DNA from: a virus | Lineage: Duplodnaviria > Caudoviricetes | Direction: 5' to 3' (one strand) | DNA: 38,785 bases | IMG/VR virus record: IMGVR_UViG_3300022177_000034 | Coordinates: 1-38,785 of that record | Shown: piece by piece, positions 1,890 through 38,780 of the stretch | Layout: the number at the start of each line of letters is the position of its first letter | Numbering within the stretch: position 1 is the first letter of the stretch | Notes under the pieces: generated by a model | Told to the model about the DNA's origin: nothing | Seen by the model: the letters and a program-made list of their open reading frames with translations, nothing else | Databases searched by the model: none | Made by a program: the position numbers and the translations under genes

Positions 1890-2065
1890 TAAAACGCCCC
1901 ATTCGAAACCTGCACAGTGACAAGCCAACACCGCCCCGTTTTTGCGATGTGGTGATTGAAGACGGCAAGATCTTCCTTGAGAAAAAGTCAGATAAGAACA
2001 AGTATGAAAAGATCCCCTGGGAGGATGTTGTCTACCAGGTAGAAACGGCAAAAGCTGTAAACTAA
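1886..2065 (+). CDS. 59-aa hypothetical protein (absent from ORF track)
   Basis: ATGA overlap with upstream stop, RBS GAAAGGGGG. MIKRPIRNLHSDKPTPPRFCDVVIEDGKIFLEKKSDKNKYEKIPWEDVVYQVETAKAVN*. Confidence 0.65.
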   Translation: MIKRPIRNLHSDKPTPPRFCDVVIEDGKIFLEKKSDKNKYEKIPWEDVVYQVETAKAVN

Positions 2066-2116
2066 TAATAAAAGAAACTACCGCACCCTGTCCCGTAATC
2101 AATCGTGGAACTAATC

Positions 2117-2170
2117 GCCGGAGTTATCTAGGTAAGCCATAAAGGCTGAAAAGATAACTCCGGCTTTTTT
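2117..2170 (+). terminator. Intrinsic terminator with 13-bp stem and nested hairpin
   Basis: GCCGGAGTTATCT / AGATAACTCCGGC followed by TTTTTT. Confidence 0.75.
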
Positions 2171-2189
2171 ATTTGTATGGGTTTTGACG

Positions 2190-2204
2190 GGACATGGTGT
2201 GTCC
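2190..2204. promoter_or_regulatory. Palindromic operator-like site GGACA-N5-TGTCC (copy 2)
   Basis: GGACATGGTGTGTCC vs GGACATGATGTGTCC at 775-789; lies upstream of an extended -10 (TG-C-TAAATT, 2224-2232). Confidence 0.55.
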
Positions 2205-2274
2205 ATTTTAAAGAAAATTTCAGTGCTAAATTAATTTATAGATAAGCAGCAATGTTTTCTAAATAATATCTCAA

Positions 2275-2460
2275 TGTCCGAGATGCGCATCAGGACGGCG
2301 GGATGCAAAAGAGTTCAGACCCAGCATTAAAAACTGTGTCACGAATGAAGATGCACCCACCGTGATTTCGTGCGCCCATTTTTCGGACAAGCGAAGTCTG
2401 TGGACATCTTCCCCACAGGCTCTTTTTGTGTCCCACCGTCAATACCTCGGACGGAAAGGA
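2275..2460 (+). ncRNA. Putative structured cis-regulatory leader RNA (attenuator/switch) of the sigma-like gene
   Basis: Long complementary segments 2294-2313/2420-2440; 2275-2282 can pair with 2382-2389 or 2446-2453; terminator-like hairpin 2396-2420 followed by TCTTTTT. Confidence 0.55.
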
Positions 2461-2469
2461 CGCAAAAAA

Positions 2470-2862
2470 GTGAAAATCAAGTACAAAAAGGCTAATGGGA
2501 CAATCATCGAACTGGAGGTATCCGAAGAGGTCGGGACCCTCTATCTAGAGTCAATTGAAGATGAAAAGAAAAATGATCGCAAAAATTCACGCCCTAATCG
2601 CCACTCACAGCTTTCTACCTTTGAATACGAAGACATCCGCTATTTCAGCGATGGCACTGACCTACTTGCGGATTTAATCGAATCCGAGGTTATCAGTCAC
2701 GCCATGTCCTTCCTGAATGAACGCCAGCAATACCTGATTCGCAAGTGTCTACTGGAGGGATGGTCATATACCGACCTTGCCGCCGCTGAAGGCAAGGATG
2801 AATCTGCCATCCGCCATGCTGTTGATCGTGCCAAAAAGAAGCTTAGAAAATTTCTTGAATAG
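2470..2862 (+). CDS. Sigma70 region-4 domain transcription regulator (phage sigma-like factor)
   Basis: RBS GAAAGGA then GTG 2470. LNERQQYLIRKCLLEGWSYTDLAAAEGKDESAIRHAVDRAKKKLRK is a region-4 HTH. Confidence 0.8.
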   Translation: MKIKYKKANGTIIELEVSEEVGTLYLESIEDEKKNDRKNSRPNRHSQLSTFEYEDIRYFSDGTDLLADLIESEVISHAMSFLNERQQYLIRKCLLEGWSYTDLAAAEGKDESAIRHAVDRAKKKLRKFLE

Positions 2863-2928
2863 ACCGTCCGAATCGGCTGTTTCCCCTGGCATATACCAGA
2901 AGGCACAAGAAATAAGCCTTCGGAAAGG
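2863..2928 (+). promoter_or_regulatory. Repeated promoter/hairpin element, copy 1
   Basis: ACCGTCCGA-N15-TGGC...GAAGGC-loop-GCCTTCGG-AAAGG; same architecture at 7739 and 38716. Confidence 0.7.
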
Positions 2929-2941
2929 CAAGGTGATTCAT

Positions 2942-3136
2942 ATGAAGCACACGCTTAGGATCGGTGTTTCTAAGGAACCGCGGGATGGCTGGATTGTTAG
3001 CCGACGTCATGTCACCGTACGGGAGCGTTTGGTTCGCTTCCTGCTGGGAGATAAGCAAAGGCTGACGGTCATCGTCCCCGGCGACAGCGTAAAGTCGCTA
3101 TCCATCGTTGAGGAGGGGGATGAAAACCGTGGGTAA
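2942..3136 (+). CDS. Small phage hypothetical protein
   Basis: RBS AAGGTGA before ATG 2942 (MKHTLRIGVSKEP...LTVIVPGDSV). Confidence 0.7.
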   Translation: MKHTLRIGVSKEPRDGWIVSRRHVTVRERLVRFLLGDKQRLTVIVPGDSVKSLSIVEEGDENRG

Positions 3137-7103: not shown

Positions 7104-7691
7104 ATGAAAAAGAATTCGAATGAGTATTTGGATTTTGGCAAAGAAACTTTTCTGGTACTTAAGAATGATATTGTCGCTATTGTCTCAACCTCATGTCTGC
7201 CACTAATCCAACACTATACATGGTGCAGGGAAGGTACTGGGTATTTGATGAGTAGAACTTACGGCCACGCTGTTAAATTACATCGCCTTGTTATCGGTGC
7301 AAAGAAAGGCGAGTACGTTGACCATATAGATGGCGACAAAATAAACAATACCCTAAGCAATCTTAGAATATGCACAAAACAGCAGAATGAGTTTAACCAA
7401 AAGCTTAGGACTGACAACACAACTGGTTATCGAGGTGTCAGTTATCATCGGCAGAGCAACAAGTATCGTGCTTGTATCAACATAGGTGGTAAGCAAATTC
7501 ATCTAGGGCTGTTTGAGTCACCGCATGAAGCGGCAAGGGCTTATAACCTAAAAGCCGTTGAGCTTTATGGAGAGTACGCTCGTATAAATAACCTATTTAA
7601 ATATAAGGGTGCGAATCCCCCTCAAAATCACATCAAACAAATTGATAATATGCGCGCTCATTATGGCAAAAGGACTTCAGCTAAGGGCTGA
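7104..7691 (+). CDS. HNH + AP2-domain (homing) endonuclease
   Basis: LHRLV...VDHIDGDKINNTLSNLR (HNH); TGYRGVS...YRACI...HLGLFESPHEAARAYN (AP2); AT-richer than flanks. Confidence 0.85.
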   Translation: MKKNSNEYLDFGKETFLVLKNDIVAIVSTSCLPLIQHYTWCREGTGYLMSRTYGHAVKLHRLVIGAKKGEYVDHIDGDKINNTLSNLRICTKQQNEFNQKLRTDNTTGYRGVSYHRQSNKYRACINIGGKQIHLGLFESPHEAARAYNLKAVELYGEYARINNLFKYKGANPPQNHIKQIDNMRAHYGKRTSAKG

Positions 7692-7738: not shown

Positions 7739-7806
7739 ACCGTCCGATTCCTCTCCCTGCGGTGGCTTATTCCGAAGGCCATAAACAAATTGAGCCTTCG
7801 GAAAGG
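7739..7806 (+). promoter_or_regulatory. Repeated promoter/hairpin element, copy 2
   Basis: ACCGTCCGA-N15-TGGCTTA, TTCCGAAGGC/GCCTTCGGAA stem, then RBS of the antirepressor gene. Confidence 0.7.
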
Positions 7807-11583: not shown

Positions 11584-11865
11584 ATGAAGGAAAAGATATT
11601 GGAACGCAAACTCGTGCAGGCGGTCAAGGCGATGGGAGGATTAGCCCCCAAGTTTGTAAGCCCCGGTTTTGACGGAGTGCCGGACCGCTTAATACTGTTA
11701 CCGGGTGGCAGAATTGCCTTTGCAGAAGTTAAAACGACGGGATGCAAACCCCGGCCGTTACAGGTAAAGCGAAAAGGGCAGCTGGAAGCGTTAGGGGTTT
11801 CGGTCTACATCATTGATCACCCGGATCAGATTGGAGGGATGCTGGATGAGATACGAGCCACATAA
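11584..11865 (+). CDS. VRR-NUC domain nuclease
   Basis: MKEKILERKLV...GVPDRLIL...FAEVK...RPLQ; RBS GGGAGG. Confidence 0.88.
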   Translation: MKEKILERKLVQAVKAMGGLAPKFVSPGFDGVPDRLILLPGGRIAFAEVKTTGCKPRPLQVKRKGQLEALGVSVYIIDHPDQIGGMLDEIRAT

Positions 11866-16906: not shown

Positions 16907-16925
16907 CAGAAAGGTGGTCGATCCC

Positions 16926-17585
16926 ATGGAATTTAAGTTTAACGTTACCGGTGCTAGGCGCAAAGAGCTAGTTCTGGCCATCAGTGAAATCCTGAATGCT
17001 GCATCGGAATACCAAGGCCCACCGACCTTTGCTTATGTCATAGGCGGGTTTACAGTCAACAAAGAAGGCACCCTCATCATCAGCGAAATCAACAGCGACG
17101 AAGAGCTTGAGCTATTATTATACGAGCTAGACCGGCGCGGACTTCAGTTTGAGGCACCAGACGAGCTGGTTATTGAGATGCCCAAAGAAGGTTTTACCGA
17201 AGCCGCCATTGCTAATCTGGAGCGGCTGGTTAAGAGCAAGGAAATCCTTATCAAAAAAGCCCTGGGCGCAGACCGGTTGCCAATTGAACAGACCGAGGAC
17301 CGACTGCGTTTCCCCTGGTTCTCTGGCAGCCTTACAGCGGAAGAAGTCAGCGCCTATGCCCGTTTCATCGGGGCGCTTTGCGCGATGGCCAAGAACCAAA
17401 AACGGGTAACGGCCACCGAAAAGGCGTATGACAATGAGAAGTACGCCTTTCGCTGTTTTCTGCTACGGCTGGGATTTATCGGGCCGGAATACAAAGAGGA
17501 ACGAAAGATTTTGCTATCCAGGTTAACCGGCAGCGCTGCTTTCAAAAACGGCCAGCGCAGTTCGGAGGAGGTGCCAGAAGCATGA
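16926..17585 (+). CDS. Phage protein of the so-called virulence-related type
   Basis: TGARRKELV, FPWF, NEKYAFRCFLLRLGFIGPEYKEERKILL; C-terminus resembles the amidoligase C-terminus. Confidence 0.7.
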   Translation: MEFKFNVTGARRKELVLAISEILNAASEYQGPPTFAYVIGGFTVNKEGTLIISEINSDEELELLLYELDRRGLQFEAPDELVIEMPKEGFTEAAIANLERLVKSKEILIKKALGADRLPIEQTEDRLRFPWFSGSLTAEEVSAYARFIGALCAMAKNQKRVTATEKAYDNEKYAFRCFLLRLGFIGPEYKEERKILLSRLTGSAAFKNGQRSSEEVPEA

Positions 17586-17872
17586 AGCAGATTCATCCGG
17601 AAATGTTAAAGGCACTCAGGTCATATTATCCTCCTGGTACACGGGTGGAACTAGTTCGCATGGAGGACCCTTACACAAAACTGAAACCCGGCGATCCGGG
17701 TATAGTATCCTTCATCGACGATACCGGCACCGTGTTTGTTGACTGGGATTCCGGCAGCAGGCTAGGGGTCGTATTTGGGAGGATGAAATCAGAAAAATCG
17801 AAGAATAACTGGGGCAACCGTCCGGATAAAAAGACGGATATTTCGGCGTATTTAAACTGTTTATATTGCTAA
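17582..17872 (+). CDS. DUF4314 protein; C-terminus probably frameshifted (alternative stop 17808)
   Basis: YPPGTRVELVRMEDPY...VDWDSGSRLGVVFG; -1 frame continues EDEIRKIEE*. Confidence 0.7.
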   Translation: MKQIHPEMLKALRSYYPPGTRVELVRMEDPYTKLKPGDPGIVSFIDDTGTVFVDWDSGSRLGVVFGRMKSEKSKNNWGNRPDKKTDISAYLNCLYC

Positions 17873-17877
17873 AATCC

Positions 17878-17921
17878 CTTGCTATATAGCCCTTTCAGAG
17901 TGATATATGTACACACCAAAA
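17878..17921 (+). promoter_or_regulatory. Repeated element CTTGCTAT-N10-CAGAGTGAT, copy B
   Basis: Matches copy A; lies upstream of the amidoligase gene. Confidence 0.65.
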
Positions 17922-17949
17922 AAACACACCTGAAAGGAGCTTGGATAGC

Positions 17950-18849
17950 ATGTTCAACACCAAATTCGGAATTGAGATTGAGTTTACCGGGATTACCAGG
18001 AGCCAGGCCGCCGAGATAGCGGCACAGTTTTTTAACGGGAGGATCGAACACTGCCGGGACAGCTACGATACCAAAAAGGTACACACCCCGGATGGACGAA
18101 CCTGGAAGTTTATGAGCGACGCCAGCATCCGCCGGGAGGTAAAGCTGAGCGGCAGAAAAATCAGCGCCGAGCACGAATACAGCGTTGAACTGGTAAGCCC
18201 GGTTTTAAGCTACCGCGAGGACATTGCAACCCTGCAGGAACTGGTCAGAAAGCTTCGCAAAGCCGGAGCATTTACCAACCCCTCCTGCGGGATACACATT
18301 CACCTGAACGGCGCGGACCATACGCCCAGGAGCATTAGGAACTTCATCAACATCATCGCCAGCAAGAACGACCTTTTCTACCAAGCCTTACAGATTGAGA
18401 GAGAGCGAATGAGGTTCTGTAAAAAGATGGATGCTGCCCTGGTAGAAAAGATTAACGCTAGAAGGCCGAAAACCATGCGGGAGCTTGAGGAACTTTGGTA
18501 CGAAGGTTACTGCGAAAGCCGCAGCCGTCATTACCATGAAAGCCGCTACCACTTTTTAAACCTGCACAGCTTTTGGCACGGCAACCACACGGTGGAACTG
18601 CGGGGATTTAACAGCGAACTGCACGCGGGCAAAATCAGAAGCTACATAGTCTTAGCCCTGGCCATGAACCAGCAGGCCTTGACCCAAAAGAGTGCCAGCG
18701 CCAGAAAGCCCCAGGTTGAAAACGAAAAGTTCGCCATGCGGACCTACTTAAACAGGATCGGCTTGATCGGCGAGGAGTTCAAAAACTGCCGCGAGCACCT
18801 TTGCAAACACCTGGGAGGTTCGGCGGCATGGAGGTTTCGGGCGGCTTAA
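17950..18849 (+). CDS. Putative amidoligase (COOH-NH2 ligase family)
   Basis: FGIEIE, DASI, VELVSP, SCGIHIH, RYHFLN, TVELR. Confidence 0.85.
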   Translation: MFNTKFGIEIEFTGITRSQAAEIAAQFFNGRIEHCRDSYDTKKVHTPDGRTWKFMSDASIRREVKLSGRKISAEHEYSVELVSPVLSYREDIATLQELVRKLRKAGAFTNPSCGIHIHLNGADHTPRSIRNFINIIASKNDLFYQALQIERERMRFCKKMDAALVEKINARRPKTMRELEELWYEGYCESRSRHYHESRYHFLNLHSFWHGNHTVELRGFNSELHAGKIRSYIVLALAMNQQALTQKSASARKPQVENEKFAMRTYLNRIGLIGEEFKNCREHLCKHLGGSAAWRFRAA

Positions 18850-18887
18850 GCCGCCACCGAAACCAGCGATAAAGGAGGTTAATACTA

Positions 18888-19346
18888 ATGGATAAGCATA
18901 ACAAACTGTACATCGCCTACGGCTCCAACCTCAATCTTGCGCAGATGGCTGACCGATGCCCAACCGCCAGGGTTATCGGTTCCAGCGAAATGCAAGGCTG
19001 GCAACTCCTGTTCAGGGGTTCACGAACAGGTGCAGTAGCAACGGTGGAGCCTAAAAAGGGCTGCAGCGTCCCGGTCCTGGTCTGGGAGATAACCCCCGCC
19101 GACGAAGCGGCGCTCGACCTATATGAGGGCTGGCCTTTTTTATACCGCAAGGAAACCGTCAGGGTGAAGATTAACGGAAAGACAGTCAAGGCAATGGTAT
19201 ATATCATGAACGAAGGCAGGCCGCCGGGCCAGCCCAGCTGCTATTACTATTCGGTCATCCTGGAAGGCTATAAGGAAGCGGGCTTTGATGTGGATATCCT
19301 GCGCCGGGCAGCCGCCGAATCGGTAGAAATGGAGGAAGCCAGATGA
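18888..19346 (+). CDS. Gamma-glutamylcyclotransferase (AIG2-like)
   Basis: YIAYGSNLN, LDLYEG, YYSVILEGY. Confidence 0.88.
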   Translation: MDKHNKLYIAYGSNLNLAQMADRCPTARVIGSSEMQGWQLLFRGSRTGAVATVEPKKGCSVPVLVWEITPADEAALDLYEGWPFLYRKETVRVKINGKTVKAMVYIMNEGRPPGQPSCYYYSVILEGYKEAGFDVDILRRAAAESVEMEEAR

Positions 19347-38715: not shown

Positions 38716-38780
38716 ACCGTCCGATTATTACTCCTCCTGTGGCTTAAACCGAGGGCTTGTTGATTTGCCTTCGGAGGAGG
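38716..38780 (+). promoter_or_regulatory. Repeated promoter/hairpin element, copy 3
   Basis: ACCGTCCGA-N15-TGGCTTA, CCGAGGGC/GCCTTCGG stem, RBS GGAGGAGG for a gene beyond the window. Confidence 0.7.

Follow-up and report, generated by a model that had tools for sequence, protein, structure and literature searches.

A sigma-like gene in a phage genome is preceded by an untranslated RNA of about 200 bases, which is likely a default-off switch, given that this leader is conserved in many phages and genomes of Bacillota and that two rival sets of its base pairs have evolved together. In the two-state, default-off architecture by itself we place high confidence. The window, i.e., the whole stretch of DNA analysed (38,785 nucleotides), corresponds to a linear virus record (38.8 kb) with genes for a DUF2800 protein, a ssDNA-binding protein, DNA polymerase A, an antirepressor, VapE, terminase and endolysin. 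The coordinates of the leader and its surroundings are collected in Table 1.

Table 1 Features of the leader, its promoter region and the downstream gene (window positions)
Feature	Position	Strand	Evidence or remark
Terminator-like hairpin and T-run closing the upstream operon	2117..2170	+	Sequence; similar hairpin in NatCom_2329
Palindrome GGACA-N5-TGTCC	2190..2204	.	Centred about -42 from the predicted start
Extended -10-like element TG-n-TAAATT	2224..2232	+	Predicted transcription start about 2238-2241
Short 5' hairpin, then A-rich linker	2240..2260	+	Sequence; varies among homologues (upstream listing)
P0, small hairpin that forms first, with W exposed in its loop; the module's 5' boundary	2268..2284	+
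Segment W	2275..2282	+	Partners 2382-2389 (OFF) or 2446-2453 (ON)
Possible uORF without SD, 15 aa in the window, not universal	2283..2330	+
Segment X, switch arm	2294..2313	+	Partners Y (OFF, anti-antiterminator) or 2420-2440 (ON)
Apical stem-loop	2313..2346	+	Largely kept in both states; variable sequence, co-varying pairs
Segment Y	2347..2363	+	Partners X (OFF) or terminator loop and 5' arm (ON, antiterminator)
Conserved U-run directly after the long stem	2379..2383	+	Candidate polymerase pause (inferred)
H2, hairpin resembling an intrinsic terminator (stem 9-10 bp, loop 9 nt), with U-tract	2395..2427	+
Segment X'2, anti-RBS strand	2420..2440	+	Partners RBS region (OFF, hairpin 2423-2468) or X (ON)
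Segment W'2, immediately 5' of the SD	2446..2453	+
Shine-Dalgarno region, AAGGA at 2456-2460	2454..2460	+	Paired in the OFF fold
Sigma-70 region 4 gene, GTG start, 130 aa	2470..2862	+	PF08281, E 6e-7
Phage-specific promoter-like motif before the replication operon	2863..2893	+	Further copies 7739-7769, 38716-38746

The stretch from 2260 to 2480 folds with -77.7 kcal/mol (z -6.0), and none of 200 shuffles was equally stable. In the minimum free energy (MFE) structure of the full-length leader, H1 (2275-2389) is followed by H2 (2395-2421, U-tract to 2427) and H3 (2423-2468), the last of which sequesters the Shine-Dalgarno (SD) sequence of the gene starting with GTG at 2470. H3, the actual mask of the ribosome-binding site (RBS), was missing from an initial annotation made from the sequence alone; all motifs that this annotation named do lie where it had put them (2294, 2420, 2275, 2382, 2446, 2396, 2413, 2421, 2405, 2347 and 2316), and the extension of the W pairing was located by sequence at 2285 (GCGCA) and 2371 (TGCGC). 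The long-range pairings that it had singled out belong to a rival fold. That between 2294-2313 and 2420-2440 is real and co-varies, and it is found in the MFE structure of window transcripts ending at about 2440-2460 and not in that of the full length. Both alternative partners proposed for 2275-2282 proved genuine, with the distal pairing reduced to a core of 4-5 bp in most homologues, and the pairing of the terminator loop with GAAGATG (2347-2353) is likewise present and co-varying. A further proposed pairing, of CAGAC with the terminator arm, did not hold up as a conserved element: its alignment columns are 82% paired, and it is in competition with the apical stem, whose pairs co-vary.

Besides the segments of Table 1, Z denotes the 5' arm and loop of the terminator and Z' its partner arm. 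The OFF set then comprises W.W'1 together with X.Y, Z.Z' and X'2.RBS, and the ON set W.W'2, X.X'2 and Y.Z. From 5' to 3', X.Y, Y.Z and Z.Z' are overlapping, mutually exclusive helices, each of them conserved or co-varying.

The terminator-like appearance of the 2396-2420 hairpin and its U-tract, also suggested initially, is borne out by the homologues: H2 (2395-2421) is 96% paired across 39 of them, and at least five U lie within the 8 nt after it in 22 of 24 representatives, consistent with a putative intrinsic terminator. A simple terminator scan of the window did not call H2, because its loop has 9 nt and the scan allows 8. A clear terminator hairpin is absent in a few members (L221, L222, L230 and L235). 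Two of these (L221:1501-1671 and L235:1501-1694) are shortened, apparently without the hairpin, and retain the pairing of the 5' arm with the anti-RBS strand; they are possibly translation-only versions. The U-run after the long stem (at least four T) occurs in 20/23 representatives, as compared with 0-3/23 in five other windows, and in all 12 hold-outs, even where the adjacent helix is lost. It may be a polymerase pause, and the strict NusG pause motif TTNTTT is seen in 4/23 representatives and is absent from the window.

Homologous leaders were collected by pattern scans, which yielded 24, 61, 66 and 11 stretches. Of these, 8 were discarded as chance matches and 3 as truncated loci; without duplicates, the set comprised 103 distinct leaders. 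The chance matches were L102, L109 and L110 among the 61 stretches and five of the 11. With a covariance model, diverged members were found at E 0.01 in at least 9/150, at least 18/151 and at least 6/150 genomes, and at E 0.001 in at least 6/151 and at least 10/102 (centres included); these counts are floors, since 16-24 candidates were scored per genome. The weak model hits L207, L208, L220, L223 and L224 were judged spurious, as hairpins unrelated to the leader. Leader-model hits, weak ones included, thus fall in roughly 4-12% of the sampled genomes per group, and the leader is present in phi1605, Javan630 and two Ca. Heliusvirales phages. Conservation sets in sharply at 2268, and the DNA 5' of this position is variable. 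The leader is a portable module, found behind varied promoters and before varied genes: its downstream ORFs fall into 16 clusters, and 123 of the 129 complete ones match the region-4 profile (reversed controls, 0). No upstream gene is common to more than 30 of 138 leader loci, nor did we find a dedicated partner protein within about 1.3 kb upstream. Small proteins of 59-61 aa without a Pfam or PHROG match (20/138 loci) and a basic peptide of 49 aa (30/138) are often encoded 5' of the leader, at 1886-2065 in the window and 84-105 nt before the leader in L027-type loci. One genome (G004) holds four leader copies of three subfamilies, each with its own gene (L194, L198, L199 and L200). At two loci (L229 and L240) the gene after the leader is broken early, and at a third (L092:1615-2817) it runs into a polymerase-like C-terminus, which suggests decayed elements. 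At L229, a pemK RNA motif (RF02913; L229:2446-2503) lies about 750 nt 3' of the diverged leader.

Both pair sets are conserved and co-vary among these homologues. In a MAFFT alignment of 39 leaders, the OFF pairs are 87.4% paired and 24/56 have changed on both sides (1/500 shuffles), and the ON pairs are 91.1% paired with 10/29 changed on both sides (0/500 shuffles); pair-type counts were not above shuffles (448/500 for OFF and 163/500 for ON). Within the apical stem-loop, both sides have changed in 7/10 pairs. An RNAalifold consensus on the 39 sequences came out mixed and partly wrong, because the two folds compete, and the named structures were used instead. Partner swaps were done with 23 representatives of less than 80% identity (mean 53%), drawn from an alignment in which the OFF fold alone had guided the fit. 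For each of six pairings, own partners bind better than foreign ones (p 5e-5 each): X.X'2 (-24.0 vs -17.5 kcal/mol), Y.Z (-14.7 vs -10.2), W.W'2 (-8.1 vs -6.7), X.Y (-12.1 vs -8.9), X'2.RBS (-19.2 vs -15.0) and W.W'1 (-6.7 vs -4.8). P0 behaves similarly, with -2.3 kcal/mol for cognate and -1.3 for non-cognate partners (p 5e-5), at a weak energy. Five control pairings gave no own-partner advantage (p 0.08-0.53); kinship can inflate shuffle and partner-swap tests, and it would act on the control pairings too. Judged from these comparisons of sequences, both folds are under selection. The simplest alternative holds that terminator and RBS hairpin statically dampen the gene and that the alternative pairings arise as a side effect of repeated complementarity. 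The OFF fold is indeed always the computed ground state, and some alternative pairing is necessary because X and the RBS region complement the same strand. However, Y.Z and W.W'2 co-vary though the OFF pairs do not imply them, and X on average favours its distal partner (-24.0) over Y (-12.1), so that we consider static repression highly improbable.

The default state, the ON state and the effect of masking X were computed, and all energies are nearest-neighbour predictions. The MFE structure is OFF in 23/24 representatives, the best RBS-free fold is ON in 22/24, and ON lies above OFF by a median of 9.5 kcal/mol. Among 12 hold-outs, four of which are close kin of one representative, the distal helix is absent from the MFE structure in all 12 and formed in 10 once the RBS is freed, and Y.Z appears in 7/12 RBS-free folds. 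At lengths just before SD synthesis, ON is the MFE structure in 24/24. This last result, and the lack of a partner gene travelling with the leader, would agree with a ligand-free kinetic valve, in which a few transcripts read through and refold to ON before the SD is made, so that polymerase speed, pausing and promoter strength matter. Such a valve seems quite improbable to us: the computed barrier from OFF to ON has a median of 18 kcal/mol (an overestimate, as pseudoknotted paths were disallowed), and if leak alone mattered, one would hardly expect an antiterminator that co-varies.

When X is masked in the nascent RNA, Y.Z forms in 21/24 representatives vs 2/24 unmasked. At the full terminator length, the antiterminator prevails under masking in only 8/24; it so seldom beats the finished terminator that antitermination would need to be kinetic. 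Lasting masking of X, moreover, leaves the SD free in only 1/24. Taken together, these two results imply that a trigger must block X briefly and then release it. We therefore favour, at about even confidence, a combined transcription and translation attenuator, OFF by default, that is flipped ON by a trans factor sitting briefly on X. In the OFF course, W and X would pair with their near partners in H1 (the anti-antiterminator) and the terminator H2 would form, while any read-through RNA would hide the SD in H3, a second, translational lock. In the ON course, arm X would be occupied for a short time by the trigger, for which an RNA-binding protein of the host, or one that is not dedicated to the leader, is the likeliest candidate. 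If X stayed open while the polymerase paused at the first U-run, Y could pair with the loop and 5' arm of the terminator, and the released X and W could then pair with the anti-RBS strand and the pre-SD bases and so free the SD. A single early decision would in this way unlock transcription as well as translation. Termination, the pause, the trigger and a part in induction are the postulated elements of this scheme; sequence, conservation, co-variation and gene association are observed. The initial annotation had offered an attenuator, a riboswitch or an antisense-controlled leader. An attenuator-like leader with two states stands, by conservation, by co-variation of both states and by the folding of the hold-outs, and the other two versions gain no support. 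Against a metabolite riboswitch, the conserved bases lie in multiply paired strands without a conserved unpaired pocket, the downstream genes are sigma-like and there is no Rfam hit. Against antisense control, no minus-strand -10 is conserved (a -10-like hexamer occurs at one place in at most 9/24 leaders in a simple scan) and no partner in the window rises clearly above background. For trans RNAs encoded elsewhere in the window, the best duplexes with Y, Z and X'2 were below those of a shuffled window; the best with X reached -29.3 vs -27.1 for the shuffled one (one shuffle only), on the minus strand near 11750. Among trigger candidates in the window and homologues, there was no fixed partner gene, SD-led uORF, antisense promoter or favourable self-RNA duplex.

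A ribosome could also be what covers X. It would load or stall on the short uORF at 2283, flip the switch and so report the translation state of the host. Of the 97 close homologues, 93 have a start codon at this site (ATG 43, GTG 45, TTG 5) and retain Ile and Arg at positions 3-4 via synonymous codons, a ribosome-sized mask reaching codon 4 brings about Y.Z in 22/34 diverse members, and the vmlR leader is a precedent for ribosome-triggered attenuation (PMC9226507). Yet the start codon is missing in 9 of the 34 diverse members (present in 25/34), none of the 34 has an SD before it, the peptides, of 2 to 69 aa, have no sequence in common, and Y.Z forms in only 8/34 when the mask covers just the start codon. 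The variable bases of the uORF also fall on unpaired positions, and structure alone can therefore explain their variation. On balance, we regard a ribosome trigger as unlikely.

The trans factor could instead be the leader's own RNA, as in IsrK of Gifsy-1 (PMC4825925). The terminated RNA of about 160 nt, or a piece of it bearing X, would activate the read-through mRNA in trans and set a dose threshold. The module is self-contained and portable, and X, W and Y, the complements of the anti-RBS strand and the terminator, are all contained in its short form. This short RNA, however, adopts the long hairpin in 24/24, frees the SD in only 3/24 when co-folded with the full-length RNA, and has a predicted loop-bulge kissing site of at least 3 nt in only 7/24. 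Self-activation would need RNA processing as well; it strikes us as quite improbable, and a host or non-dedicated protein sitting briefly on X remains our preferred trigger.

Upstream of the leader, the palindrome of Table 1 is likely the binding site, as predicted, of a dimeric regulator. It recurs in 24/124 distinct upstream regions, in most of which the extended -10 stands (by eye) at a nearly fixed distance from it; this spacing is compatible with a class II activator site and with a repressor operator. A second copy of the palindrome (775-789), with an extended -10-like element equally far behind it, comes after an XRE-bearing gene (phrog_4031) that is cut by the window start. Another inverted repeat (about 2089-2095 with 2188-2194) encloses the terminator-like hairpin of the upstream operon, and the stretch 2085-2195 is conserved in two Ruminococcus phages. 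With a promoter upstream of the module and a predicted start near 2240, the computation does not point to a transcription start beyond about 2400, which the initial annotation had named as telling against its leader. RNA contigs from four runs include three near-identical ones of the upstream genes (ends at 2049, 2084 and 2108), one that covers 2821-3080 and none over the leader; as their ends differ and such contigs drop short RNAs, they are no evidence either way.

The product of the downstream gene has a C-terminal sigma-70 region 4 helix-turn-helix, and region 2 was not detected in it. Its sequence matches in the PDB are to C-terminal parts of sigma factors only, and its structural model consists of a beta-hairpin, a long helix and the helix-turn-helix (pLDDT 81, pTM 0.45). 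The phage-specific promoter-like motif matches the window three times (0/100 shuffles), directly behind the sigma-like gene, ahead of that for the antirepressor and at the window end, and in homologues its upstream half changes with the family of the sigma-like protein (by eye). From this pattern we infer that the sigma-like protein would activate the motif promoters. Each copy is followed by a small hairpin, and the third, after the endolysin gene, points off the end of the record. The motif was not found upstream of the leader, and on this ground we set aside the idea that the sigma-like protein regulates the promoter of its own leader. The phage is probably temperate, as its relatives in bacterial genomes are described as prophages, and the threefold occurrence of the phage-specific motif suggests that the leader may be linked to prophage induction. 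The leader would then be a second lock against leaky transcription behind a regulator-bound promoter, and such control of leak would keep the sigma-like activator of the replication genes unmade. Elsewhere in the window, an HNH-AP2 endonuclease gene (7104-7691) directly follows that of DNA polymerase, and genes for an amidoligase and a gamma-glutamyl cyclotransferase (16914-19346) lie between those of the small and large terminase.

Close relatives of the sigma-like protein are not always preceded by this leader. Among 23 viral loci with such a relative and upstream DNA, six have it and the others have unrelated leaders, at least four further structured leaders in all, mutually unrelated (L004, L008 and L018, about 160 nt before the gene; L010 and L012; L014, L016, L021 and L023; L017). 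Those of these other leaders that were scanned against Rfam gave no match. Most of the 12 that were folded, two of them as incomplete stretches, hide the RBS, and three (L004, L021 and L023) clearly offer the same rescue by a 5' arm. A bolder reading is that a portable RNA-only device decides lytic entry in temperate Bacillota phages. It would be swapped between promoters and sigma-like genes, would sense host translation or transcript dose, and would antiterminate and free the ribosome site with a single switch. As unrelated leader families, the DUF2800 RNA included, share the slot, such a device would form a convergent and so far unrecognised RNA layer of the lysis-lysogeny decision, a possibility to which we give only tentative credence. 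The gene that the leader precedes is likely to encode the master activator in a widespread group of phages. Control of lysis and lysogeny in Bacillota is usually ascribed to proteins; if the leader gates activation, an RNA checkpoint would be added to it in gut and environmental Bacillota, and cross-talk between co-resident elements is conceivable where one genome holds several copies (G004). As each of the two folds is specified down to the single base in a module that is portable, a simple reporter can serve in the search for the trigger.

The window has no Rfam match at the gathering threshold, a check that had been proposed at the outset, and a search of 1900-3100 at E up to 10 returned three unrelated chance hits only. 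The leaders of 20 and 17 loci gave none (pemK RNA and tRNA lie elsewhere in these loci), and the IsrK, C4 and CI models matched neither the window nor the leaders of the 37 loci scanned. The DUF2800 RNA (RF02960, typed Cis-reg) resembles our leader in being a structured leader in the same slot, and the window also carries a DUF2800 gene 3' of the leader. The best RF02960 hit, in L246, stands before an ORF that resembles (by eye) the same sigma-like class and is followed by an RBS hairpin. More broadly, the DUF2800 RNA and its weaker relatives (L246:109-269 and L247-L253) precede ORFs whose ends carry a sigma-region-4-like helix-turn-helix (by eye), each with an RBS-hiding hairpin 3' of the RF02960 model end. 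Nevertheless, a search of the window with RF02960 found nothing up to E 10 (gathering threshold 60.2 bits), the leader model R1 reaches at most 12 bits on eight RF02960 loci, the two models match different places in 151 genomes, and the consensus folds differ. The DUF2800 RNA fills the same slot and is not homologous to this leader; its slot, so far unexplained, gains a testable role. RF02960 stems, we presume, from a survey of 224 motifs. The main text of that survey (PMC5737381) does not mention DUF2800, and its supplement may describe this or a related motif. By title and opening of the abstract, no published description of the element or mechanism was found; the main text of the Heliusvirales paper (PMC11283538) is without the terms 'sigma', 'repressor', 'DUF2800' and 'non-coding'.

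Likenesses of single parts are found in several known RNAs. In the repZ pseudoknot of IncI-alpha plasmids, a 5' loop (here P0/W) pairs just before a sequestered SD (PMC8383071); unlike there, no antisense RNA was found here, a terminator and antiterminator are added, and P0 is energetically weak. IsrK of Gifsy-1 and the CI RNA of P4 are, according to PMC4825925, phage leaders with an internal terminator and two alternative folds, the short form being complementary to the downstream translation start region. In contrast to the IsrK type, our leader has no Rfam match, co-folding does not favour its action in trans, and host phylum and target gene are different. The C4 RNA of P1 presumably shares the likenesses of IsrK and P4 CI. 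The closest parallel in logic is the vmlR leader of B. subtilis, whose four-part attenuator was established experimentally (PMC9226507). Both are about 200 nt long, with an anti-antiterminator hairpin, a terminator, an SD-hiding hairpin and a default OFF state, and in both the induced fold combines an antiterminator with a long-range SD-freeing pairing; we claim no sequence homology. The trigger of vmlR itself is a ribosome stalled on an SD-led uORF, with a TTNTTT pause (PMC9226507), whereas our leader lacks an SD-led uORF (0/34), seldom has TTNTTT (4/23) and gates a phage sigma-region-4-like gene. We conclude that the leader represents a genuine and so far uncatalogued family of RNAs, which likely acts as a known type of attenuator does, in a new setting.
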